Positions 3,601 through 60,773 of a stretch of DNA of 64,000 nucleotides are shown here, in pieces (position 1 is the stretch's first letter; each line of letters opens with the position of its first letter). The translations under genes and the position numbers were made by a program. The notes under the pieces are model-generated. The model saw only the letters and a program-made list of their open reading frames with translations, ran no database searches and was not told where the DNA came from. This DNA comes from a virus: the IMG/VR virus record IMGVR_UViG_3300045988_116318, positions 84,184 to 148,183 of that record. One strand, 5' to 3'.

Positions 3601-6600
3601 ACTATATACAGGCAATGCTGATCTTCTTACTGCGAGAGAAAAAGATGTGTATGATAAATACAAACAAGATTTTGATGATTATGTATCATCTTTGGGTGAC
3701 AGTCCTGTTAATCTCATAAAATCATTATCTGAGAAGGCTGATAGGCTTACAAGTCCGAGATCTGTGTATGAGGATAATAAAGCTATTATTGATATGGCTA
3801 AATCCAATTTAGAACCAGATCAAAGGAAGGAACTTGATGATGCTATTTCTTCGTATGTTGATATAATGAACAGACGGGATAAAGGGGAGAAGGTTGACGA
3901 AGATAAGCTTGCCGATTCGGTATTTACCATAGAAGATCTTGGCCAGGTTGGAAACATCACAGATCTCCTTCCTTATGTTGAACAAAACAGGATTATTGAC
4001 AAAGGTCGTATCTCTGAATCTACGTTGAGTAATTTTGGGGAAGATGATGCTAATATAGATTCTCTTGTAAATGAGTTAGATGAATCCGATAATACGCCTG
4101 GAGCTAACATAGATAGCGCCCAGAATCCAGAGACGTTGATGGTTAGAAGAATATCCAACGATGGCAACGAAAGGTATGAAATTGCAGGTCTTAGAGCCGA
4201 TAAATTTATATCTTCTATAAAATCATTGGTTCCTATTCAAATAAGCTCTGAAACGAACGCTAATGGCACTAAAAGGTATTCTCTTAATATAGGTGGAGAA
4301 ACGGCTACTATAATTGAATTGCCTTATCATGCGAGATGGTCTATAGACAAAGAATCGGCTCGTGTTCTTAACCGTTACACAGACGTGTCTATTCAGGACG
4401 TGGGTAATTCCTATTCTTTGGTTTATAAGCGTCTTGATTCAGATGAATTGGTTCCGTACAGAACAGGTGTCGGATTCGGAGAGAATGAGGTAGATAAAAT
4501 AGATCAGGAAGCATTATCTTCTTTGAAAAAAGGAGATAAGGTTAATCTCGAAATAGATGTAAATGATACCTATAATCAGTCTCTTTTTGCCGAATACAAT
4601 GACGCTGTTCAGTCCGGCGATAAAAAAAGAATAGAATCTGCTGAGAATAAACTGGTATCCAATATGGTTATCAAGGTCATGAGTGGGAACAGATTCGTTT
4701 CTGTTGTAAAAGCTGATACAGGAGGCATAGATGGTATAAGTAAAATAAGAAGAACGGCTTTTAACAAGTGGAAGAAGGACGCCGGCCGGTCGGCTACCAT
4801 CGGCGTCGGCACGCATGTTGTTGCCCAGGCCCTTCCCGGAAGACCGGTGTTTAACATGAAGGTGAACGGTCAAGGATATGGCCAGGTAGAAAATCTCCCT
4901 ATTACCGAAAAAGGTGCTGAAAAAGTATCTGATGTGGGGTATGTATTAAATGGCAAAGTCGTGCTTAAGAACGGATCTAAATACACAGGATTCCCATTTG
5001 CTTATTCTATATTAAACGATAAGAAAAACAATTACAAAAATGTAAGAGTTCCGGTAGTCGTTATCAAGGGTAAGAATGGTCTTAATTATCTTTTCCCGGT
5101 TAGTCTACGTTCTGTGGAATCAGAGGAAGGAAAGAAATGGATTTCTTTTATAGATATGCTGCTTGAATCCGGTGACTCTGAATTGTTGCAGATGGGTCAA
5201 GATGACATACAAGATCTTAATGCGTATCTGACCAAGTTAGGTCTTGATCCAGCTTCGTATCAAGTATCGTATTTGAATCCTATTTCAGGTCTTAGAAAAG
5301 CTCGTGAGGCTATAGAAGAATTATCTACAGTTCCTGATGTTGTTAAGTGGGTAGAAGATGGAAGTAGGAGTGTGAAAGACATTGTGACGTCTGAAGTAGA
5401 ATCTGGAATAGATTTCGAAGGTGAGATGTTTGTTGCTCCTAAGATCAGGATTCAGTTTGGTAAATCATCTTCCAGACCTAAATCACTTATAGAAGATGAT
5501 CTCCCTTTCTCCGATGAGGGTAAGACCGTTACTTCCAAGGAAGATGTGGATATTTACGAAGAGGAAATGCCAGAGGAAGAGCCTGTCCAGGCGACTCAGC
5601 CGACGCCATCAACTCAGCCGGCTCCTGCGGCACAAGCTGCGCAGTCTTTACCTGGCAAGAAGCGTACCTCCAGGAAAAACTTCTCTCTTATGTTAAACGA
5701 AATAGAATCTCATATAGAAAAAGAAGGATTGCCGCCTTATGCTAATATTTTTGATTTTATAGCAAGGAAGATTGTAGGAGGCGATTTGAGGTTTCTTCGT
5801 GATAGAGGTAATCCTAAAAGCCTTAAGGAAGAAATGGGATTAGAACCTAAAGGAACAGTAGGTGATAAAATATCCACTCCTTCCAGTAAAGGTGGTAAGA
5901 CCTTAGAAGAATACGTTTCTTGGCTTCGTTCTCAAACAGATCAGGTGGTGGTTGATTATGTTGGGCCAAGATCTGACGAACAAATTATATCAGAGTTGAA
6001 AAACTTTTTGAAATATATTAATTTTGTTCCAAGCAAGGCTTTGAATTATTCTCTTAGAGTCAATGGCATGGATACCCTAAAAGAATATGGCACAAAAGAG
6101 GAAGTAGAAAAAATGGAATCTGATATCAATAGTTTGGTTTCTAAAGTTTTGCCTACGGTGGACAACCAAACTATAGAAGATGTTTCTACTGCAATAAAAT
6201 CAAACAACTTGCCTGCCATATGGGAGCCCGTGGAAAGCCTTGATATGACAAACGAGGAAAAAATAGAGTTTTTGAATAACGTAGCAGATTTCCTTAGCGG
6301 CATACCAGAGTATGATGCTGTCGTGGAGTCTATAGAGTCAGAATCAGATAATATTTTAAATGATGGAAAAGAAGGAAGTGCAGAAGGCGGTGCAGTACGC
6401 ACTGAGGAAGATGGCGATAAAAAGGGAGATGGAGAAGGCAAAGGACAATCCAGAACAAATGTCGAAGTTGAAGGAAATGTCGAATTACCTGGATCTACAA
6501 AAGGAGAAATAGGAAAAGACGAACCTCGTATATCCGAAGAACCGCTTACTTACATATCAAGGGTGACAACCCCTTATTTCCTGTACGGCGGTGATGAAGC

Positions 6601-6931
6601 ATATACATCTGTTCCGGCTAAGGTAGAACCTATACCGGAGAAGATAATGGGTCGTAATGGCATTAAATTTGGTATGAGTGTAGTCGAGTTAACCAAATTA
6701 GGGTACAAAAAAGCTGGTGGAAACTGGATATATAAATTCTATATGAACTCAGGTGTGTATGATTTGTATAATATAAGTTCCAGTGCATTCATCCGCTCTT
6801 TATCTCAATCTGGTAGAAAAATACAAAATATGATGAGTAATATGAGCCAGGAAGAGATAGATAGGAATAAGAATCTTGTAGAAGGTTCTGATAATTCGGA
6901 TTCGATAAATGAGTTAAATAAGGAGTGTTGA
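647..6931 (+). CDS. giant protein (2094 aa), putative virion/ejection-associated protein
   Basis: Uninterrupted 6.3-kb ORF. Gly-zipper hydrophobic stretch (GGLGVGSLGNIGAKLGGRIGAKLAA...GIVGLSNWLLFG). Long coiled-coil segments. Pro/Gln/Ala linker and Lys/Glu/Gly low-complexity tail. No catalytic motif recognised. Confidence 0.85.
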   Translation: MADNNIDRYNPAAKTTYEDVARQRKLAEEENYTPATLPETTTPLVPNYMPGEGVYAQPKFPDYASRIAAAEYEEPYIAKEISNSYSEALARNSYRGATPAPPPLNPYGPKVSIRESHQMGNDGVWRTKYPNYIPGINNEDYYARRQSGWSKFWNGVGKFALKSALYGAQGVVSLPDKLINMASEGSYKAALNTNMDKFVGDLDQQIDMLLPHYYRKEVEDYNFGQKLFKDTGNFLWNDVLGNGMSFTVGAMISAYMTGGLGVGSLGNIGAKLGGRIGAKLAARQAANRGIGSLKSVFNDYVRKGVATGRNVGEAAKTMTLLATSAGFESSVEANSFMKQSESDFKDYYRKIYGRDPNAEEMAVFRNSNADVGSAIFAANMGIVGLSNWLLFGKYIGLGGKAIPGLEKKLNKHLFGLGTEVAKPGEMAIKITNPNIGQKIAGNVFNIMKRPVSEGLWEEGSQGAVQNTAEEYVKSRYDNVAMNGAVDVLDAISEGFKKQYTSKEGWTEIGIGAIIGSLFGMREGFFGVKEYSNSQILLERQVNEYNKASSNLNTAALNTLKKSMSLGPQVRSDAQSMTGKELDDAMFEKMSIDNQMGTLEDSAENFRQMIDMMPISEIAEANGMSLEEAKKYKDSIIDNYNNRLSDFRSAQSFAEDLIGDDSKIEFRKYVARNAFLGLQSESRMKDIASVIETLSGQPRVAYALSTFSRLSDRARERAMAIRGIRSRIEELESEIEDLATRPRNVDGKDPQAESIQRKTKELEDLRTNYNNSLSELSTLIGKEFSIEELVSKTESVLSSPLSPISSQDVIEAYDTLVAFDDYFNVKSRQEKKFTAKDKAMRSLVNEYRRSLMDYRNMNNFLSKMLDKRFLAEENRGFSKALSSLWSTPYKGDDKVPDFAEPNKVGEYDTDEVVDQAVSEGKISEDEAWTIKAFMHALDKVREDRMKEAEDNIKESPLTESVSDEDYEAAMDNPIMVPAVRQSIIDKLYTGNADLLTAREKDVYDKYKQDFDDYVSSLGDSPVNLIKSLSEKADRLTSPRSVYEDNKAIIDMAKSNLEPDQRKELDDAISSYVDIMNRRDKGEKVDEDKLADSVFTIEDLGQVGNITDLLPYVEQNRIIDKGRISESTLSNFGEDDANIDSLVNELDESDNTPGANIDSAQNPETLMVRRISNDGNERYEIAGLRADKFISSIKSLVPIQISSETNANGTKRYSLNIGGETATIIELPYHARWSIDKESARVLNRYTDVSIQDVGNSYSLVYKRLDSDELVPYRTGVGFGENEVDKIDQEALSSLKKGDKVNLEIDVNDTYNQSLFAEYNDAVQSGDKKRIESAENKLVSNMVIKVMSGNRFVSVVKADTGGIDGISKIRRTAFNKWKKDAGRSATIGVGTHVVAQALPGRPVFNMKVNGQGYGQVENLPITEKGAEKVSDVGYVLNGKVVLKNGSKYTGFPFAYSILNDKKNNYKNVRVPVVVIKGKNGLNYLFPVSLRSVESEEGKKWISFIDMLLESGDSELLQMGQDDIQDLNAYLTKLGLDPASYQVSYLNPISGLRKAREAIEELSTVPDVVKWVEDGSRSVKDIVTSEVESGIDFEGEMFVAPKIRIQFGKSSSRPKSLIEDDLPFSDEGKTVTSKEDVDIYEEEMPEEEPVQATQPTPSTQPAPAAQAAQSLPGKKRTSRKNFSLMLNEIESHIEKEGLPPYANIFDFIARKIVGGDLRFLRDRGNPKSLKEEMGLEPKGTVGDKISTPSSKGGKTLEEYVSWLRSQTDQVVVDYVGPRSDEQIISELKNFLKYINFVPSKALNYSLRVNGMDTLKEYGTKEEVEKMESDINSLVSKVLPTVDNQTIEDVSTAIKSNNLPAIWEPVESLDMTNEEKIEFLNNVADFLSGIPEYDAVVESIESESDNILNDGKEGSAEGGAVRTEEDGDKKGDGEGKGQSRTNVEVEGNVELPGSTKGEIGKDEPRISEEPLTYISRVTTPYFLYGGDEAYTSVPAKVEPIPEKIMGRNGIKFGMSVVELTKLGYKKAGGNWIYKFYMNSGVYDLYNISSSAFIRSLSQSGRKIQNMMSNMSQEEIDRNKNLVEGSDNSDSINELNKEC

Positions 6932-6933
6932 GT

Positions 6934-7257
6934 ATGAGAAGGAGATACGAAGATGTTTCAAGTCTTGTTCAGTATCAGTTGAAGACCAATCAGCAGGGGA
7001 ATATAGAGGTTTATGTTGATGACAGGTTTGTTGGAAACGTAAGTGAAGGAGTCTGTAATTGGAAGGATATTGAATACAAGAGTAAGGTTACTATATCTTT
7101 GAAAGGAGTCGAGGATAAGGCTAAAACTTCAAGTAAAAGAGTCGGTCCTTATTGTCACATTTATAGCATATTTGGAGGAAATGAATCTTATCATGCAGGT
7201 CCGGATAGTAATATAAAAAAAGAGTCCGGTTACCACCTTTATAATGTATTGTTATAA
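6934..7257 (+). CDS. hypothetical protein (107 aa from ATG 6934; ORF track starts at GTG 6925)
   Basis: AAGGAG RBS about 8 nt upstream of ATG 6934. Immediately follows giant gene stop. Confidence 0.5.
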   Translation: MRRRYEDVSSLVQYQLKTNQQGNIEVYVDDRFVGNVSEGVCNWKDIEYKSKVTISLKGVEDKAKTSSKRVGPYCHIYSIFGGNESYHAGPDSNIKKESGYHLYNVLL

Positions 7258-7513
7258 AAATGGGGATATTACAACTACCACTACTTATACTAAAAATTTA
7301 TCTGGAACTCTTCAGATAGGTAAAACACAATTGACTATCAATTACAAACAAAGTAAAAGTCAGTCTTTCTCCGGTGGTTCTGGAGATTATGTAACATCCG
7401 TATCTGATTTCCCTTTTGTTACTGGTCCAGGAAATGATAGCGTTGAGTTCGAAGGAGAGGGAAGATTGATAGTTGAGACAGAGGCTTCGCATTATGAAAT
7501 AGAAGTTTCATAA
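7244..7513 (+). CDS. hypothetical protein (89 aa), Thr/Ser/Gly-rich
   Basis: ORF overlapping previous gene by 14 nt in the +1 frame. Confidence 0.45.
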   Translation: MYCYKNGDITTTTTYTKNLSGTLQIGKTQLTINYKQSKSQSFSGGSGDYVTSVSDFPFVTGPGNDSVEFEGEGRLIVETEASHYEIEVS

Positions 7514-34838: not shown

Positions 34839-35048
34839 CTAATCAGCTTTAATAAAAATAACATCCTTACCATCCTCCCTCTCTACGTGATTACACGGGC
34901 CTGCGACTACATCTACCGACCCGCATGTAATGTGGTCGTTAAATATACATCCTTCACATCCTAAGTCTGGCTCTGGAGCATCCACACATTTTAATCTCAC
35001 AAGTCCGGCATCAAACACTTCTCCTACTTTAAATTCCTTCTTTTCCAT
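34839..35048 (-). CDS. small Cys-rich protein (69 aa from ATG 35048 with AAGGAGG RBS; track ORF extends to 35132)
   Basis: 6 Cys (CVDAPEPDLGCEGC...CGS...CNH). Strong RBS favours the internal start and removes overlap with the upstream gene. Confidence 0.45.
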   Translation of the reverse strand: MEKKEFKVGEVFDAGLVRLKCVDAPEPDLGCEGCIFNDHITCGSVDVVAGPCNHVEREDGKDVIFIKAD

Positions 35049-35064
35049 ATTTCCTCCTTGTTTT

Positions 35065-35667
35065 TTAACTGTTGTACCCTTCTTTAATAATCGAATTTCT
35101 ACCGGTAGATACCGACTGTCGAAGATCGTCATGTACAGAATCTACCGTAGAATACTTGTTTCTGGTTGTAAAAATCACTTCCAGCATCTCCTTGTAATCA
35201 CCTAAAGCTACTTCGTATCTCGGATCTACTTTGGCTTTTCTTTCAGCCTCAGCATTACTTTTAGCCAGCTCCCGGTCGAGGAGGTCTTCTTTGATTCGGT
35301 CAGCAATCATATCAAGTTCTTTTTTAATAACTTCTCCTGCTGCCCGAAGTTGACCTTCTACGTCACCAAGCTGGTCTTGGACGGTTCCTATTTCTTTCTT
35401 TAGGCGATCGTATTCGTTAATCATACTCATATCACCTGCATAACCAGAAAAGTCTTTGATTATTCTGGTCCCTTCTTTAAGGAGCTCAATGACTCGTCTT
35501 TTGCGTTCTCTGCTTATTAAAGACGGAAGACGATAATTCATATCCGCCACCGCCTTGTCGTGTATGGAGTTGATTAAAAACATCTCTCTTTCATCCCCTG
35601 CAAATTCAGTAAGAACCAAAAGGAACTTACTTATCAGGTATTCGTTTTCTTCTACGGTAAGTCTCAT
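35065..35667 (-). CDS. hypothetical coiled-coil protein (200 aa)
   Basis: ORF directly downstream of DnaB-like gene. Confidence 0.6.
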   Translation of the reverse strand: MRLTVEENEYLISKFLLVLTEFAGDEREMFLINSIHDKAVADMNYRLPSLISRERKRRVIELLKEGTRIIKDFSGYAGDMSMINEYDRLKKEIGTVQDQLGDVEGQLRAAGEVIKKELDMIADRIKEDLLDRELAKSNAEAERKAKVDPRYEVALGDYKEMLEVIFTTRNKYSTVDSVHDDLRQSVSTGRNSIIKEGYNS

Positions 35668-42001: not shown

Positions 42002-42461
42002 TCTTCTTCTCGCCTAATTTTTCAGCTCCCTTCTGAAGATCGTATTTGAATACGTCAATGATCTTCGTTTCAGCAATAGCTTCGCAATTCCAGTCGCCCA
42101 ACGTACCCTGCATGCCTTTAGTCAACACAGCTTCGGCATCCTTAGGATTGCCGGCCTGGACATACATATAGCATGGAGTTTTCTTTTCTTTACCTTTCTT
42201 TTCATTCAGTGTAATGTAATTTACCTTACACTTATACCAGTACTCAGCTTCTCCGTTGAAGAAGATTTCCGACACTTTAATAGGATTTATTTTAACAATG
42301 TCGAACACTTGAAATAAATCCTTGAAAATCTCTAAAGATCTTGATTCTGCCTCTGTATAAGATAAGGCATCTACCAAATACTTTTCAGTTACTTTCTTTT
42401 TTTTGCCGTTCTCGATATTATCAATCTCGGCTTTTACCGTAATTTCAAACCAGCGATTCAT
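41991..42461 (-). CDS. hypothetical protein (156 aa)
   Basis: ORF. Confidence 0.55.
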   Translation of the reverse strand: MNRWFEITVKAEIDNIENGKKKKVTEKYLVDALSYTEAESRSLEIFKDLFQVFDIVKINPIKVSEIFFNGEAEYWYKCKVNYITLNEKKGKEKKTPCYMYVQAGNPKDAEAVLTKGMQGTLGDWNCEAIAETKIIDVFKYDLQKGAEKLGEKKSEE

Positions 42462-42472
42462 TGTATTAATAT

Positions 42473-42781
42473 TTAATTAGTTGATTTCTTTCCTTTCTCT
42501 ATACTATTTTTAAGTCTTTCAGAACACCACTGCAAAACGTCCATCATCATCATCTCATTGTTGGATAAGATACCTTTTATAACTAACGCCAATTGATGCT
42601 GTGACATTCTTTGACTCATATCAAATCTTCTTTCCTCTTCATTTACTATCGTAGCCACGAAATACTTACACCCCTCTAAGTGCGTCAGGGCTTCAATCAT
42701 AGCTTCTTTTATCTCTTTTTCTTCCATTCTGTTTGTTTTTTTTGGACAAAGATATGTCTTTTGATAATAAAAAAGATTCAA
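42473..42781 (-). CDS. hypothetical protein (102 aa)
   Basis: ORF. Confidence 0.5.
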   Translation of the reverse strand: MNLFYYQKTYLCPKKTNRMEEKEIKEAMIEALTHLEGCKYFVATIVNEEERRFDMSQRMSQHQLALVIKGILSNNEMMMMDVLQWCSERLKNSIEKGKKSTN

Positions 42782-49492: not shown

Positions 49493-50155
49493 TTAATCCC
49501 ATCCTCCAGTAGTGTACAAAGATACATCTTCCTCCTCTACATTTACACCTTTAAGAGCCTGTAGAAGTTTTTTCTTTGTCTCCCTACACATATTGTAACC
49601 ATACCCCTTATACTTATATGACCTTTCCCATGTACTTACCGGAAAAGGGATATTCTCGTCAATAACCAGCCTCTTCATATGAAGATGTTCGAAGAATTTC
49701 TCATGGTATAGAAGTTTATACTCGTATCCTACTATATCAGTAAATGAGAATGGAAAATAATCATCTTCTTTTTCTTCGTATTTAGGCTCCTTATAGTAAG
49801 CCATTTTTGTCACAGTAAAATCGAAGCTCCTAAGAATCTCTTCTGGCTTTCCAAACTCTGACTCTATGAACTCTATCCATACCTTTTCTCCCTCTTTCTG
49901 GAACGCACATACCTTCTCATTTCTGTACTTAAATTTCCATCCTTCTTTCTGATGTTTTTCATCATTGAACAAATCAATAGCTTCCTGAAAATCGCTTTCA
50001 CTTTCAAAGAAAATATCAATATCTTTTACTTTTTCTCCGGAAAGGATATTCTTAAAACATCCACCAGCTATGAATCCTTTGTGGCCTTCCATATACTTGT
50101 CAAGCCATCTTATTTGCCAGAAATTATCTGGAGTATCTATTACAAAATTGTTCAT
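49493..50155 (-). CDS. Pol-beta-superfamily nucleotidyltransferase, CCA-adding/poly(A)-polymerase head-domain-like (220 aa)
   Basis: IAGGCFKNILSGEKVKDIDIFF matches GGxVRDxLLGxxxxDxDi. LRSFDFTVTKMAY matches RRDFTINAm. Confidence 0.55.
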   Translation of the reverse strand: MNNFVIDTPDNFWQIRWLDKYMEGHKGFIAGGCFKNILSGEKVKDIDIFFESESDFQEAIDLFNDEKHQKEGWKFKYRNEKVCAFQKEGEKVWIEFIESEFGKPEEILRSFDFTVTKMAYYKEPKYEEKEDDYFPFSFTDIVGYEYKLLYHEKFFEHLHMKRLVIDENIPFPVSTWERSYKYKGYGYNMCRETKKKLLQALKGVNVEEEDVSLYTTGGWD

Positions 50156-50912: not shown

Positions 50913-51179
50913 CCAAAGTTTTTCAATATTGTTCCAAATGAATCGTATTTGATTCCTAATATATCATGTGGTCGGTTAGAGCCACATTCACATTCGCCAA
51001 CTCTTGCGCCGGACCCGCACTCGCATAAGTCGATCCCCTAATGGTTGACGCAGTGGTTGCAGCAGCAGGACTGGTGAAGCCATGTGGCATCACCAGCATC
51101 CAAATCCAATCTTTCAAATGTTTCCCAAAACATGCTATTCGAAGCACCATTATCAAAATTGATAGTGACTGCTCTGCAT

Positions 51180-51455
51180 TTACATTTTTGTATGTATTCG
51201 ATTTTCATATGTATATTCTATTTTCAAAATATCTGGGGACAGATATTCTTGTAACTCTAATTTGCGTATTGGGACAAGACAATCCAGATGTTCATCGTCC
51301 ATTTCTTGCTTATCTTCGTCTACCCACATCAACGTGCCACATTCATAACATTCGGGGCACTTGTCAGCTCCACATGGAAGAAGCATTTGCGCTCCACATT
51401 TAGTACATCTTACCCAGTCACCATGCCGTATTCCTTCGTATGTTCTTGTTTTCAT
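51180..51455 (-). CDS. Zn-ribbon small protein (91 aa)
   Basis: CTKCG...CGADKCPECYECG. Confidence 0.5.
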   Translation of the reverse strand: MKTRTYEGIRHGDWVRCTKCGAQMLLPCGADKCPECYECGTLMWVDEDKQEMDDEHLDCLVPIRKLELQEYLSPDILKIEYTYENRIHTKM

Positions 51456-51595
51456 ATTTATTGTTTATCATTTATAACATTTACTTCTTCGCTCCACAAA
51501 TGTCTCTTATATATCGGAGTGATGCCAATCAGAAAATTCTTGTATTCCTCCTTTGTTCCTGTCATAAGGAGAAAAATCGGATAATTTTACCGTTT

Positions 51596-52334
51596 TCATT
51601 TTTTTTCTGGATTTTCAGTAATTCCCAAAAGACACTCGTTACCCTCAAAAGGAATACAATGAATAAACACCACCCCATTCAAACATTCATATTTAGTCTC
51701 CCCATCCTGATCGTCTGTAATTGTTCTTATGAATAAATTGCCCTCCCAATTGTCATCTTCATAATATTTTACTAACACTTTGTCAAACGGCTTAAAATCA
51801 TATTTCGGCTTTTCTTCAATTCCGAAGAAACGTTTCAGATACTCCTTAGCCTTTGGATTATTGCTTGCCTTTAATGCGCAAATCATCATCTGTTTTTCCG
51901 AATCTGTTGCAAGTCTATAACGTTCTATATTGTTTTCGTTTGCAGCAATATCATCCGATATATTAAGACTTGTTCCCGCTGCAAGACTCGCATACAAAGA
52001 TGTTAAATATTCCCCATGTATATTTAAAATAAAAATAAAACTTCCGTCTTCGTTGCTTAACACATCTCCATCTTTAAATGTAGTATATTCCGGGACTTCA
52101 AGAAGGAGGCGATTTTCGCTGCTAAATGCTTTTCCTGTAGCAGAAAACCAATCTGCCGATACAGAAATAGAATGAATTACAACCAATAACGGACAAATTG
52201 ACGAATTGTCTTCATATACGATTTCTGCTCTATTTCGTCCTTTCTCTGTCACAATCTGACCTACTCTTTCCCCTATGTTTATTTTTTTTCGCCGTTTCTA
52301 AATCAAACGGGATTGTTACCATTTTATATTCCAT
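51596..52334 (-). pseudogene. frameshifted paralog of downstream-encoded 247-aa protein (+1 A in an A8 tract at 52282-52289)
   Basis: Frame from ATG 52334 (MEYKMVTIPFDLETAKK) stops after 33 codons. After the A8 run the -1 frame continues (INIGERVGQIVTEKG...ECLNGVVFIHCIPFEGNECLLGITENPEKK). Both segments align to the paralog 52339..53082 (MENPIIVPFDLNTARKIKSGEIEGSVLIG...). Confidence 0.55.
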
Positions 52335-52338
52335 AATC

Positions 52339-53082
52339 TTATTTGTTTTTATTGGTTCCTAAAAGATGCTCATTTCCTTGGTATGGAATACACTCTTTGT
52401 ATCTCAAACCTCCCAAGCATTCATATTTGTATTCTTCTTCTCTTACTCTGGCAAATAAGTGTAGATTCCAATTTCCCAAATTGCTTGCTCTCACCAAGAC
52501 TTGATCGAATGGCTTAAAATCGCATTTCTTTTCTTTAGTCAGCAAGTATTCGTACTCACTTAGATATTGTTTTATTATTCCTGCTTTTTTAAGGTTTTCT
52601 GTATTAGCAATTCTTTCAGCAAAAGATTTTTTCTCTTCCTCTGTGGCTAATCTAACATACTTGGATTTATCCTCCACACACACACTTGTCCATATTGGAA
52701 CTTCTTCAGATGTAATCTCGCCATATGCCGATATACCATATATGCATCCCATATCTCCTTCTCTATTAATAATACCATTATATATAAATGGGTTCCCAAG
52801 CGTGCTTATTAATACATCTCCTTTCTTAAAATACGCTCCAGCCTCTACTTCCAATTCCAGAACGTTGTTGAAAAAAGTACGACCTTCTGTATCGGCATAT
52901 ATAGCACTTATCCCAGATTCATCTTTTTTTACAAAAAGTAAATTATAACGATCTGCACAGTCTTTTGACTCATATACAAATTCTATTTTAATATTACCAA
53001 TTAATACTGAACCTTCTATTTCTCCGCTTTTAATTTTTCTCGCCGTATTTAAATCAAACGGAACAATAATTGGATTTTCCAT
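52339..53082 (-). CDS. hypothetical protein (247 aa), intact paralog
   Basis: Shares N-terminal IPFDL-TA-K and C-terminal DFKPFD.VLV...KYECL.G.....CIP..GNE.LLG with the adjacent frameshifted copy. Confidence 0.65.
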   Translation of the reverse strand: MENPIIVPFDLNTARKIKSGEIEGSVLIGNIKIEFVYESKDCADRYNLLFVKKDESGISAIYADTEGRTFFNNVLELEVEAGAYFKKGDVLISTLGNPFIYNGIINREGDMGCIYGISAYGEITSEEVPIWTSVCVEDKSKYVRLATEEEKKSFAERIANTENLKKAGIIKQYLSEYEYLLTKEKKCDFKPFDQVLVRASNLGNWNLHLFARVREEEYKYECLGGLRYKECIPYQGNEHLLGTNKNK

Positions 53083-53128
53083 ATCTTTTTATTTTTAATT
53101 ATGTAATCAATAAAACAAGATGGGTTAC

Positions 53129-54190
53129 TTAAACCCATCCCAGTTGTTTTGCTATTCTCTCCATTTCGTTATATGCTATCCTATGACATCCAGCGGTTAG
53201 CAAATCGTTTTCGTACCGATTTAGACTCCACTGGTGACCGGTGATGTCCTCCACCAGACCGTGCCGAAACTCGGCGCCCCGGTGCATTGCCGACACAGCC
53301 CTCCACAGTTTTCTGGCTTCTGCTATTCCAATCTTTATCTGTTTACTTGTCTCAATAATATTTCCTTTTATACGAATCCAGGCGTTAGGTTTTTCACCAG
53401 GAATATAGAAAGGTGTATTCAAGAAATTGATTTCTCCTGACTTCCACTCTTCCAGTTTTTCATCAAAATCCTTGTAACGGGCTTCTTCTTCCTTTCTTAA
53501 TCTCTCTAATTTTATTCTTTCTCTTTCTTCCTCACCCTTTCTCCATCTTTCAGATCTTTCTGAATACTTAATCCATGTACCTTCCCCGCAAACTTCATCA
53601 ACAATCACATTTACGGTCCCTAACACTTTTAATCCTTGATGATCCAATAAAATTTGAAAGATGCGTTTTAATTCATGTACGTGCTTACGCTTGATACTAT
53701 CTCCGCTCTTGGATAATTCATGATTGGTTCCAAGCCAATCATTAGCACTCTTTTTAAGGATACTCTTAGCAGTCCCCATGTTAAAGAACTGAATGTAATC
53801 CATCATATTCCCAAAAGCGCCCCAAATATCTGTATAAGATAATTCTGTTTTAGCTCTTTTGTATTTTTCAATAGACTTCTTAATTGATTCCAGTTTGCTG
53901 GCAACAAACCTCATATTACCAGTATCCGATATATTATCCCCTACACTGAAAACCATTGCCCAAGTTGGTATCGCATTACGAACATAGCGTTGATGTTTGC
54001 TCGTGGTAGCAGAATAATAATCTTCATTTATCAGGTATGCTTTCTTCCCTTGTTTGTTTTTTACTATTCTCCCGACTTCAAAGTGATGCCCATAAGAATA
54101 AATACTTGTACCTACAAAGAAGAAATTGCTCCCTGATGCTGATTCTTCTTGTTCATGAGCCCACAAGTGAGCGACCATTGAATTGTTCAT
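53129..54190 (-). CDS. hypothetical protein (353 aa) with charged ERxxLERLRKEEE coiled-coil segment
   Basis: ORF. Confidence 0.65.
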   Translation of the reverse strand: MNNSMVAHLWAHEQEESASGSNFFFVGTSIYSYGHHFEVGRIVKNKQGKKAYLINEDYYSATTSKHQRYVRNAIPTWAMVFSVGDNISDTGNMRFVASKLESIKKSIEKYKRAKTELSYTDIWGAFGNMMDYIQFFNMGTAKSILKKSANDWLGTNHELSKSGDSIKRKHVHELKRIFQILLDHQGLKVLGTVNVIVDEVCGEGTWIKYSERSERWRKGEEERERIKLERLRKEEEARYKDFDEKLEEWKSGEINFLNTPFYIPGEKPNAWIRIKGNIIETSKQIKIGIAEARKLWRAVSAMHRGAEFRHGLVEDITGHQWSLNRYENDLLTAGCHRIAYNEMERIAKQLGWV

Positions 54191-54202
54191 ATAAATATCT
54201 TT

Positions 54203-54493
54203 TTAATTGTTTAACTTACCTCTACTATATAATCCTCTTTGTTCATATTTTTCAATACATTCGGTTATCATATCGCAGAACACTTGCCCTTCTTTTTCGG
54301 AACCTCTGAAGTAACCAATCATCTTCAGGATATTCCCGTTAAACTCATGGACAAACTTGTTATAATAATGTTCACCCATTACCCGTCCGTATTTTTCTAC
54401 GAACAAATCCTTGTCCAGTGATTCATCCTTAAAGCAACGGTTGTAATCCCATCTTACGATACGAAACAATGTTTCAAAATTCAATCTTTCCAT
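54203..54493 (-). CDS. hypothetical protein (96 aa)
   Basis: ORF. Confidence 0.5.
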   Translation of the reverse strand: MERLNFETLFRIVRWDYNRCFKDESLDKDLFVEKYGRVMGEHYYNKFVHEFNGNILKMIGYFRGSEKEGQVFCDMITECIEKYEQRGLYSRGKLNN

Positions 54494-54603
54494 ATCTTGT
54501 ATTTTATGGATTTCCTCACATTCTTCATCCGTTAATCCAGTGTAATCATCATTGATTAACGGGCAAGCCTAATAAGAAGGCAGTCTGTATCTTATTACCT
54601 CTA

Positions 54604-57820: not shown

Positions 57821-58166
57821 CTTTGTCTTGATTTAAACAATAGTTAATAAAATAAGCAACCTGTTCATTTTCCCCTGTATTATCATAATCACCTAAAGTC
57901 ATATCATCATAATCCAGCAGAACTATACGAAAATCGTTTTTTTTGACATACACCTCCGTTAAAAACATAGGAATCCCATTAATTTCTATTATCACCGGAA
58001 ACTGATCATCAAAGTCAAACGCATCATTAGTTTCTTTAAACTCTTTAAATTTTAGCTTTATAATTCCATTGTTTTCTGCTAATGCTTCTTTGATGTACTT
58101 TAATCTTTTTGCATTCAGACTGACCTCTGCTTCTTCTATTTCTTTATACAATTTATTTAGATCCAT
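57795..58166 (-). CDS. hypothetical acidic protein (123 aa)
   Basis: ORF. Confidence 0.5.
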   Translation of the reverse strand: MDLNKLYKEIEEAEVSLNAKRLKYIKEALAENNGIIKLKFKEFKETNDAFDFDDQFPVIIEINGIPMFLTEVYVKKNDFRIVLLDYDDMTLGDYDNTGENEQVAYFINYCLNQDKDGKEQKRL

Positions 58167-58926: not shown

Positions 58927-59004
58927 CTTTGTCCTCCTTTCTTGAATAAAAAAAACGGCACCTATCTTCGCAGACCAGTGCCGGTAACTAACTTACATGG
59001 AAAA

Positions 59005-59867: not shown

Positions 59868-60149
59868 TCACACTTCTTTCGTTAGTTTATCATAATATGC
59901 TTTCAATTCCGGTGAAGCATATTCCATAAATGCCTCAAATAAACATGGTACTTCTACTATCGCGTATATAGCGCACCCTTTCATCGTTGAAAGCTGTTCA
60001 AGATCATTACTGTACAGGCACGTAACATAAGCACCTACATTAAATACATGTAAATCTATCCTTACGTATTCCATACATAAAGATAATGACTTAAACAAAT
60101 CCTTTACATCATTCTTATCAAAGAGTTCTACAAATTCTCTCAATTTCAT
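59868..60149 (-). CDS. hypothetical protein (93 aa)
   Basis: ORF. Confidence 0.45.
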   Translation of the reverse strand: MKLREFVELFDKNDVKDLFKSLSLCMEYVRIDLHVFNVGAYVTCLYSNDLEQLSTMKGCAIYAIVEVPCLFEAFMEYASPELKAYYDKLTKEV

Positions 60150-60529
60150 CTTACTACCCTTTCCACGTGTTTAATTAATACTACTGCCATCCCTTTGCCG
60201 GTTTTTATCGCACATTCCGATCCTTTTATCCATTCTACACATCCTACATACTTTTCTGTAGAATGAAAACCTGGATTGTATTTCCCGGATGTACTAAACT
60301 CTACCGTATCCCCTACCTTCAGATCCTCAAAAGCAATAGCCCATGTGGTCCAAATTCTATCATGTCTTCCAGGCTGAATGGCTCCGATTACGCCTTTCTT
60401 ACGACCGTTTTTTATTGCCTTTAGTATTATCTTTCTATCACCTTCAATAAGGCTGCAAAAACGCCCATAAAAGGTCAAATCAACCTGTTTTCCTCCTATT
60501 TCTTCTCTTATTTTTGTTATTCTGTTCAT
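60146..60529 (-). CDS. hypothetical protein (127 aa)
   Basis: ORF. Confidence 0.5.
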   Translation of the reverse strand: MNRITKIREEIGGKQVDLTFYGRFCSLIEGDRKIILKAIKNGRKKGVIGAIQPGRHDRIWTTWAIAFEDLKVGDTVEFSTSGKYNPGFHSTEKYVGCVEWIKGSECAIKTGKGMAVVLIKHVERVVR

Positions 60530-60773
60530 TTTCTGATTTTGTTTTATTTTTTTCTTTGTTTTTTCTATCTTCTATAGAAGATGATAATAACATTATCTTT
60601 TCTATGTTACTTTTTGACTGTAAAAAAGAATCGCATTTCATTACTACTACGATCTTCTTAAGTTCTCCATTATCATACAGCGATACACGCATCATGTTTG
60701 GCACCTCGTCCACTATCAGACCTGGAGTAGTCTTAGCCATTTTACGTAGCTTATTATACTCCGGTCTTTCCAT
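60480..60773 (-). CDS. hypothetical protein (97 aa) with basic Asn/Lys/Arg tail
   Basis: ORF. 50-nt overlap with downstream gene. Confidence 0.4.
   Translation of the reverse strand: MERPEYNKLRKMAKTTPGLIVDEVPNMMRVSLYDNGELKKIVVVMKCDSFLQSKSNIEKIMLLSSSIEDRKNKEKNKTKSENEQNNKNKRRNRRKTG

Follow-up and report, generated by a model that had tools for sequence, protein, structure and literature searches.

Frameshift hot spots at A runs are a feature of the rII genes of phage T4 and are explained by the slipped-strand model of Streisinger. In the tail assembly chaperones of tailed phages, a programmed −1 frameshift is conserved across orthologs and yields two required products. Frameshifts at poly(A) tracts of Buchnera and Blochmannia were reportedly found by Tamas and co-workers in 2008 to be rescued by polymerase infidelity, and the rescued tracts in these organisms usually consist of 9–10 A or longer. 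As for phage homopolymers, the 2021 work of Sorensen and co-workers is said to have located polyG tracts in receptor-binding genes and to have demonstrated switching within lysates. According to the paper that cites it (PMC10877375), that work (Sorensen et al. 2021, Cell Rep 35:109214) deals with hypermutable polyG tracts in genes of Campylobacter (Fletchervirus) phages, and its title connects the tracts with phenotypic diversity and evasion of bacterial resistance. Homopolymer phase variation at bacterial contingency loci is outlined for Campylobacter, Neisseria, and Haemophilus in PMC8355987 and PMC2651432. Rescue of poly(A) frameshifts and adventitious slippage are covered by reviews and data in PMC5009743, PMC5574713, and PMC6260861.

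Here, we analysed a homopolymer frameshift in one of two tandem genes, termed P1 and P2, of a gut phage. The window, i.e., the whole 64-kb stretch of DNA analysed, belongs to a tailed phage of the human gut with a genome of approximately 150 kb. The only phage record close to the window was csAssE-Sib (OR575929), an unclassified member of the Caudoviricetes, likewise from the human gut and 151 kb long, to which the phage is related. Identity to csAssE-Sib was 81% across the P1/P2 region and 90–98% elsewhere. A literature search on csAssE returned no relevant result, and a crAss-like status is hinted at solely by the name of the record and by a protein from 'uncultured phage cr116_1' that was matched in BFVD. 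The genome has a GC content of 38%, and 28 A/T runs of at least 7 nt were counted within the window. The plus strand encodes giant structural proteins at 1–22.5 kb, and the minus strand carries replication genes and numerous small accessory genes. P1 and P2 sit among genes annotated without a function, and a Gad2-like nucleotidyltransferase and a Dam methylase are encoded a few genes further downstream; the Dam gene consists of two parts, 62 and 141 aa, in one relative (L161). The features of the region are as follows.

52339..53082, minus strand: P1, intact, 247 aa, taken from the ORF list; 36% identity to repaired P2
52924..52930, minus strand: A7 tract in P1 (GTA AAA AAA GAT, Val-Lys-Lys-Asp), in frame in the window
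51596..52334, minus strand: P2, 245 aa if the tract is A7, interrupted in the window; ATG at 52334, supported by intact orthologs
52282..52289, minus strand: A8 homopolymer in P2 (T8 on the plus strand), +1 relative to the in-frame A7 of relatives (Lys-Lys-Ile)
52230..52334, minus strand: truncated 34-codon ORF, 17 native and 17 out-of-frame residues; stop TAG at 52230–52232
51596..52252, minus strand: remainder of P2, a 218-codon ORF in the +1 frame; GTG start called at 52252
52270..52273, minus strand: G4 run that follows the A tract at a distance of 9 nt; G5 in relative L162
52005, minus strand: SNP linked to the tract state; in window coordinates, every A8 contig has T (a Leu codon), and the sister clade with A7 has C (a Ser codon)
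51599..51606, minus strand: further A8 run, at the 3' terminus of P2 (GAA AAA AAA TGA), in frame; the stop overlaps the next ATG (ATGA)
51507..51599, minus strand: 30-aa remainder of the small gene that follows P2, frame shifted by a 53-nt deletion
49493..50155: Gad2-like/poly(A)-polymerase-like nucleotidyltransferase, a few genes downstream of P2
48812..49474: Dam-type methyltransferase, a few genes downstream of P2

The A8 tract of P2 is a new example of a type of event that is already known. As in T4 rII, ±1 changes that are recurrent and in principle revertible affect a coding A run of a phage gene that can apparently be dispensed with under many conditions and would give null alleles; rII was established by laboratory genetics, whereas the P2 case is read from natural variation among metagenome assemblies. 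As with the Fletchervirus polyG tracts, to the extent that the title and the citing paper describe them, homopolymer changes in phage coding genes would produce ON/OFF subpopulations, but the P1/P2 tracts are short (A7), non-conserved, located in ORFan early-region genes, and known from assemblies. With bacterial contingency loci, as outlined in the sources named above, P2 shares a simple-sequence tract that lies in the 5' part of the coding sequence and determines the reading frame by its length; unlike the loci of that outline, P2 has a tract of less than typical length that codon usage explains, that one-fifth of the relatives have lost, and whose A8 state has a single origin in the lineage of the window. 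The AT-rich genome and the persistence of A-run frameshifted genes recall Buchnera and Blochmannia, and rescue at the RNA level is conceivable here as well, but the P2 run is only A8 and intact alleles dominate. Finally, as in the tail assembly chaperones, a slippery run within a phage gene connects two overlapping frames, but the shift in P2 is absent from most orthologs, is +1, and lacks a stimulator.

The A8 allele of P2 and its inheritance

Repaired P2 and P1 aligned end to end with 91 of 250 positions identical (36%, E = 1e-31). This similarity is far above chance and bears out the initial annotation, in which 52339..53082 and 51596..52334 were regarded as tandem paralogs. P1 lies upstream of P2 in nearly all relatives. 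They belong to a large, phage-only family of 1254 clusters (50% identity) whose members are typically approximately 245 aa long, and neither protein was assigned to a family in Pfam or PHROGs. P2 was predicted to comprise several small SH3/Tudor-like β-barrels and a helical linker joining them. The residues flanking the tract (A11, K12, and I14) are invariant or nearly so across the family. Since the median dN/dS among 71 intact orthologs was 0.40, P2 is a real gene that is weakly to moderately constrained. At three loci (L035, L038, and L070, around position 4009), one hybrid gene was present instead of two paralogs, with a P1-like start region joined to the tract and body of P2 at a common CCGTTTGATTTA..ACGGCG segment, which suggests an unequal P1/P2 recombination that deleted one copy.

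The A run in P2 reflects the conserved Lys-Lys-Ile, which AT-rich codon usage writes as AAA AAA ATA; GCG AAA AAA ATA AAC occupied the tract site in 59 of the 80 IMG/VR loci first fetched. In the window, the minus strand reads GCG AAAAAAAA TAAACATAGGGG, with eight A's at 52289..52282, inside the reading frame and 17 codons into P2. The frame of P2 changes at this run, and every statement on the sequence made in the initial annotation was confirmed. Deletion of one A yielded, as also claimed there, a continuous ORF; its 245-aa product aligned to P1 over the whole length and differed by one residue from an intact 245-aa protein (P0126) of the protein collection. The 218-codon remainder of P2 contained no further lesion and was likewise one residue away from P0126. 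We also considered reassignment of the stop codon, which is irrelevant because the lesion consists in a shift of frame and because a TGA follows shortly past the TAG in the zero frame.

The exact 218-aa frameshift product, which gene callers output solely from a broken frame, was on record on 10 contigs. Four of these places were fetched, three of which were near-identical to the window: the contigs from ENA (ERZ28658614) and Logan (SRR31216451 and SRR22839271), i.e., L160, L161, and L163, which come from different samples, showed 99.8–99.98% identity to the window over 6–6.7 kb and all carried A8. The intact allele P0126 was found on 8 contigs of the window's own lineage, and A7 was read in three fetched contigs of this lineage (99.4–99.6% identical) and in two short contigs with P0001. 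Since the same lineage was assembled as A7 in sister contigs, the assemblies are able to distinguish the tract lengths. Across 51160–54500, the A8 and A7 groups differed solely by the tract and the one linked SNP at 52005. As judged from this alignment, A8 arose once in the lineage of the window and was then inherited.

The 3' end of P2 contains the second A8 run (51599–51606), for which A5, A8, and A6 were counted in 41, 8, and 2 relatives, respectively. This run was examined as a possible second disruption of P2 and rejected as an in-frame variant of a run with modal length A5. In csAssE-Sib and a few others, A6 at this position fuses P2, the small ORF, and a zinc-ribbon ORF into a 393-aa ORF (L001, 3193–4374), and proteins of 392–394 aa were common in the homologue list. 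The region of the small gene (51458–51599) is broken in the window into ORFs of 30 and 35 aa in different frames, with the 53-nt deletion (junction 51535/51534) being defined relative to csAssE-Sib and L004. The identical 30-aa gene call occurs in the sister clade with intact P2, and a general link between the deletion and the OFF state of P2 was discarded, as the two coincide in the window's lineage only.

Tract variation in related phages and at other sites of the window

Comparison of tract length in related genomes, which the initial annotation had proposed as a check, gave mostly A7 with A6 and A8 minorities. Among 78 IMG/VR contigs matching the tract context, A7, A8, and A6 were present in 70, 4, and 4, respectively; in the metagenome contigs, which are Illumina SPAdes assemblies, the corresponding numbers were 39, 4, and 1, and coverage was 21–55x for three of the four A8 contigs. 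In addition, approximately 21 of 100 relatives carried a G-interrupted tract (AAG AGA ATA, AAA AGA ATA, or AAG AAA ATA), all in frame, the interruptions being either synonymous AAG or Lys-to-Arg changes. The backgrounds of the ±1 variants were 69–92% identical to one another, and the nearest neighbour of each was an A7 contig. When contigs were clustered at up to 4 mismatches per approximately 870 nt, several clusters had mixed tract states, and one near-identical cluster had A8 in P2 in two contigs and A6 in two others. Resetting the tract to A7 restored a full-length ORF in most OFF contigs.

The tract of P1 varied as well. Its lengths were A6 in 2, A7 in 58, and A8 in 7 IMG/VR contigs, and A6 in 1, A7 in 25, A8 in 6, and A10 in 1 of the metagenome loci, which were scored by anchored fuzzy matching; thus ±1 states accounted for 13–24% of related contigs. 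Frame loss in P2 was also observed outside the tract: L162 (98.75% identical) has an independent +1 frameshift by G4 to G5 that leads to the identical premature stop, eight contigs of the L166 type have an independent A4-to-A3 frameshift in the 5' part of P2, and many gene calls within the 90% cluster of P2 are N-terminally truncated. In coding control tracts, variants were found in 0 of 24 (T8 at 42397), 0 of 30 (T7 at 60547), and 1 of 22 (T8 at 57937) cases and rarely in A6 runs, and the intergenic run at 58948, probably also that at 42736, varied. The difference between the P1/P2 tracts (30 variants in 228) and the controls (1 in 76) was significant (Fisher test, p = 0.0017). Because their runs vary while those of neighbouring genes stay near-invariant, P1 and P2 behave as though frame loss were tolerated.

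Both genes were OFF in 7 contigs, P2 only in 8, P1 only in 8, and neither in 76; P1 was OFF in 7 of 15 contigs with P2 OFF, an excess over the expectation under independence. This association gave p = 0.0014 per contig, 0.03 per cluster state, and a non-significant 0.11 in a conservative lineage count, and we regard it as suggestive. Selection could underlie it, as could a technical factor affecting some of the contigs; opposite run changes (A8 together with A6) in some double-OFF contigs argue against a simple technical bias. The IMG/VR contig 3300045988_109420 showed four homopolymer deviations and a few other IMG/VR contigs three or four, and such contigs may be error-prone.

Three further homopolymer sites of the window were recorded. 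At 7215–7221 on the plus strand, a second frameshift allele (A7) divides a gene into the ORFs 6925..7257 and 7244..7513; in csAssE-Sib, the run is A6 and the gene is one CDS of 192 aa. The split gene is flanked by genes for a structural protein of 2094 aa and a protein of 759 aa. IMG/VR relatives carried A6 in 54 cases and A7 in 2, ten fetched loci carried A7 in eight and A8 in one, and an exact match to the 89-aa downstream product was listed in 519 assembly-index blocks with varied backgrounds. In L224, an IS605 OrfB/Cas12f-like TnpB gene (1284–2270) is inserted beside the 89-aa gene. At the second site, the ORFs 60480..60773 and 60146..60529 overlap by 50 nt across A7 (60547–60553) and A6 (60559–60564), and they would form a single frame of 212 aa if one A were removed. 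Their arrangement and run lengths were invariant in all of approximately 30 relatives and in csAssE-Sib, and either a conserved pair of overlapping genes or a candidate site of recoding may be present here. At 35066, near the boundary of the ORFs 35065..35667 and 34839..35132, the window has T6 and csAssE-Sib T5, with gene lengths of 200 and 97 aa in the former and 251 and 65 aa in the latter.

Probable loss of function and the alternatives

We propose that A8 is probably an inherited +1 slippage variant with loss of function, which arose at a hot spot in the weakly constrained accessory gene P2. The codons AAA AAA ATA for the conserved Lys-Lys-Ile create an A7 run, the type of run that is a classic hot spot of replication slippage, and gain of one A converted A7 to A8 in the window's lineage. 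Translation initiated at the usual ATG would then stop after 34 codons and the 245-aa protein would not be made. The inherited allele, which circulates in several human samples, would persist because constraint on P2 is weak and the gene is dispensable in nature. Base gains and losses recur in related phages both at the P2 tract and at the separate A7 tract of P1, which gives ON and OFF forms of either paralog at the population level. Of this scheme, the allele, its inheritance and single origin, the recurrent tract changes, and the near-invariance of control tracts are observed, and slippage as the mechanism, loss of function, and near-neutrality are inferred.

The initial annotation considered that reads uniformly showing A8, together with a disrupted copy in relatives, would indicate a dead pseudogene. 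Relatives do share the disrupted copy and the ORF is disrupted in an inherited manner in comparison with intact orthologs, which leans toward an inherited null allele, but a search of the 218 downstream codons found no secondary lesion, so that long-term pseudogene decay is not visible. The A8 allele may be young, still expressed, or reversible, and some residual expression by RNA-polymerase slippage, a +1 ribosome slip, or restart at the GTG is possible.

A tentative alternative, on the unlikely side in our judgement, is a contingency locus in which the 5' A7 tracts of both paralogs are stochastic ON/OFF switches that leave zero, one, or two active copies, with switching being maintained by host defences that sense or are blocked by P1/P2. 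Phase variation was one of the readings offered in the initial annotation, and it stood in part. The tract lies inside the reading frame, in-frame and out-of-frame length variants occur in the population, A6, A7, and A8 recur on different as well as near-identical backgrounds, including the cluster with both A8 and A6, and the tract is the sole lesion in most OFF alleles, whose ORFs its repair restores. Furthermore, such a tract is present in both paralogs, their OFF states co-occur suggestively, the neighbours (Gad2-like nucleotidyltransferase and Dam) are accessory or anti-defence-like, and OFF contigs make up approximately half of those sampled from the window's lineage. Other observations oppose it: A8 is monophyletic in this lineage with no sign of back-and-forth switching, and the tract is neither conserved, given its G interruptions, nor longer than composition predicts, A7 being the default for Lys-Lys-Ile at 38% GC and runs of at least 7 being common in the window. 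P2 is also broken at non-tract sites, as would fit relaxed constraint, and the ratio of tract events to SNPs appears to be that expected of a neutral slippage hot spot. These results agree better with dispensable genes under mutation pressure than with an evolved switch. In an extended form, which we consider unlikely, a phage population would constantly generate the four ON/OFF combinations through the separate 5' A7 switches of P1 and P2, and host defences would select among them. Such selection would account for the co-occurrence of the OFF states. A broader version holds that transcription or translation in this phage group slips on A runs, by which A-run frameshift alleles would be tolerated, and the widespread allele at 7215–7221 fits it.

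That A8 still gives full-length P2 through RNA-polymerase slippage or a +1 tRNA-Lys slip is quite improbable. Loss of one A or gain of two by the polymerase would restore the frame, a +1 slip from a4-a6 to a5-a7 would yield exactly the K-K-I-N-I-G of intact relatives, the ORF past the shift is undamaged, and the second A-run frameshift allele (7215–7221) is very widespread. Homopolymeric A/T runs provoke transcriptional slippage to an extent that differs between polymerases: very short runs suffice for phage T7 RNAP, and bacterial RNAP needs approximately 7 T or more A (PMC6260861, PMC5574713). Against this, approximately 90% of the relatives have no shift (A7 or an interrupted tract), the A6 alleles, which are about as frequent as A8 in IMG/VR, need the opposite shift, and the 34-aa product is confined to the A8 allele. 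If such recoding held, A8 may be a low-expression or two-product form and not a null allele.

A programmed frameshift producing a short and a long isoform, another suggestion of the initial annotation, was not borne out. The sequence A AAA AAA A permits +1 re-pairing of tRNA-Lys, but this is true of any A run. The tract is in-frame A7 in 70 of 78 IMG/VR and 39 of 44 metagenome uninterrupted tracts, so that the frame change is not conserved. The 92 nt past the tract gave −11.2 kcal/mol, no different from shuffled sequences as a stimulatory structure (z = −0.32), and neither a stop nor a rare codon was present at the shift site, the following zero-frame codon being AAU. A conserved recoding signal at the P2 tract is, as judged from these sequences, excluded.

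A homopolymer error of sequencing or assembly in the window, the remaining suggestion of that annotation, is extremely improbable: some related IMG/VR contigs do show several homopolymer deviations at once and the window itself has a second +1 difference at 7215–7221, but both window alleles were found again in independently assembled contigs of different samples and pipelines (for P2, the 10 contigs with the 218-aa product and the three near-identical A8 contigs), sister strains were correctly assembled with A7, only two 1-nt coding homopolymer differences were placed across the 42 kb aligned to csAssE-Sib, and all tracts of at least 6 nt in 40–64 kb had the modal length of the relatives except the in-frame run at 51599–51606 (A8, a minority length).

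Implications for annotation and phage biology

For annotation, P2 of this genome is to be treated as a frameshifted allele, neither as a correctable error nor as two genes, and the same applies to 6925..7513. More broadly, short A runs in accessory genes appear as visible mutational hot spots in a very common group of human-gut phages. Putative null alleles make up approximately 10% of assembled genomes, a figure perhaps somewhat inflated by possibly error-prone IMG/VR contigs, and approximately half of one lineage. This would mark P1 and P2 as dispensable in nature and offer cheap natural knock-outs of both. If switching were fast and selected, these phages would be a second phage group with homopolymer phase variation. 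Comparison of hosts and samples between ON and OFF phages could reveal the role of the P1/P2 family.
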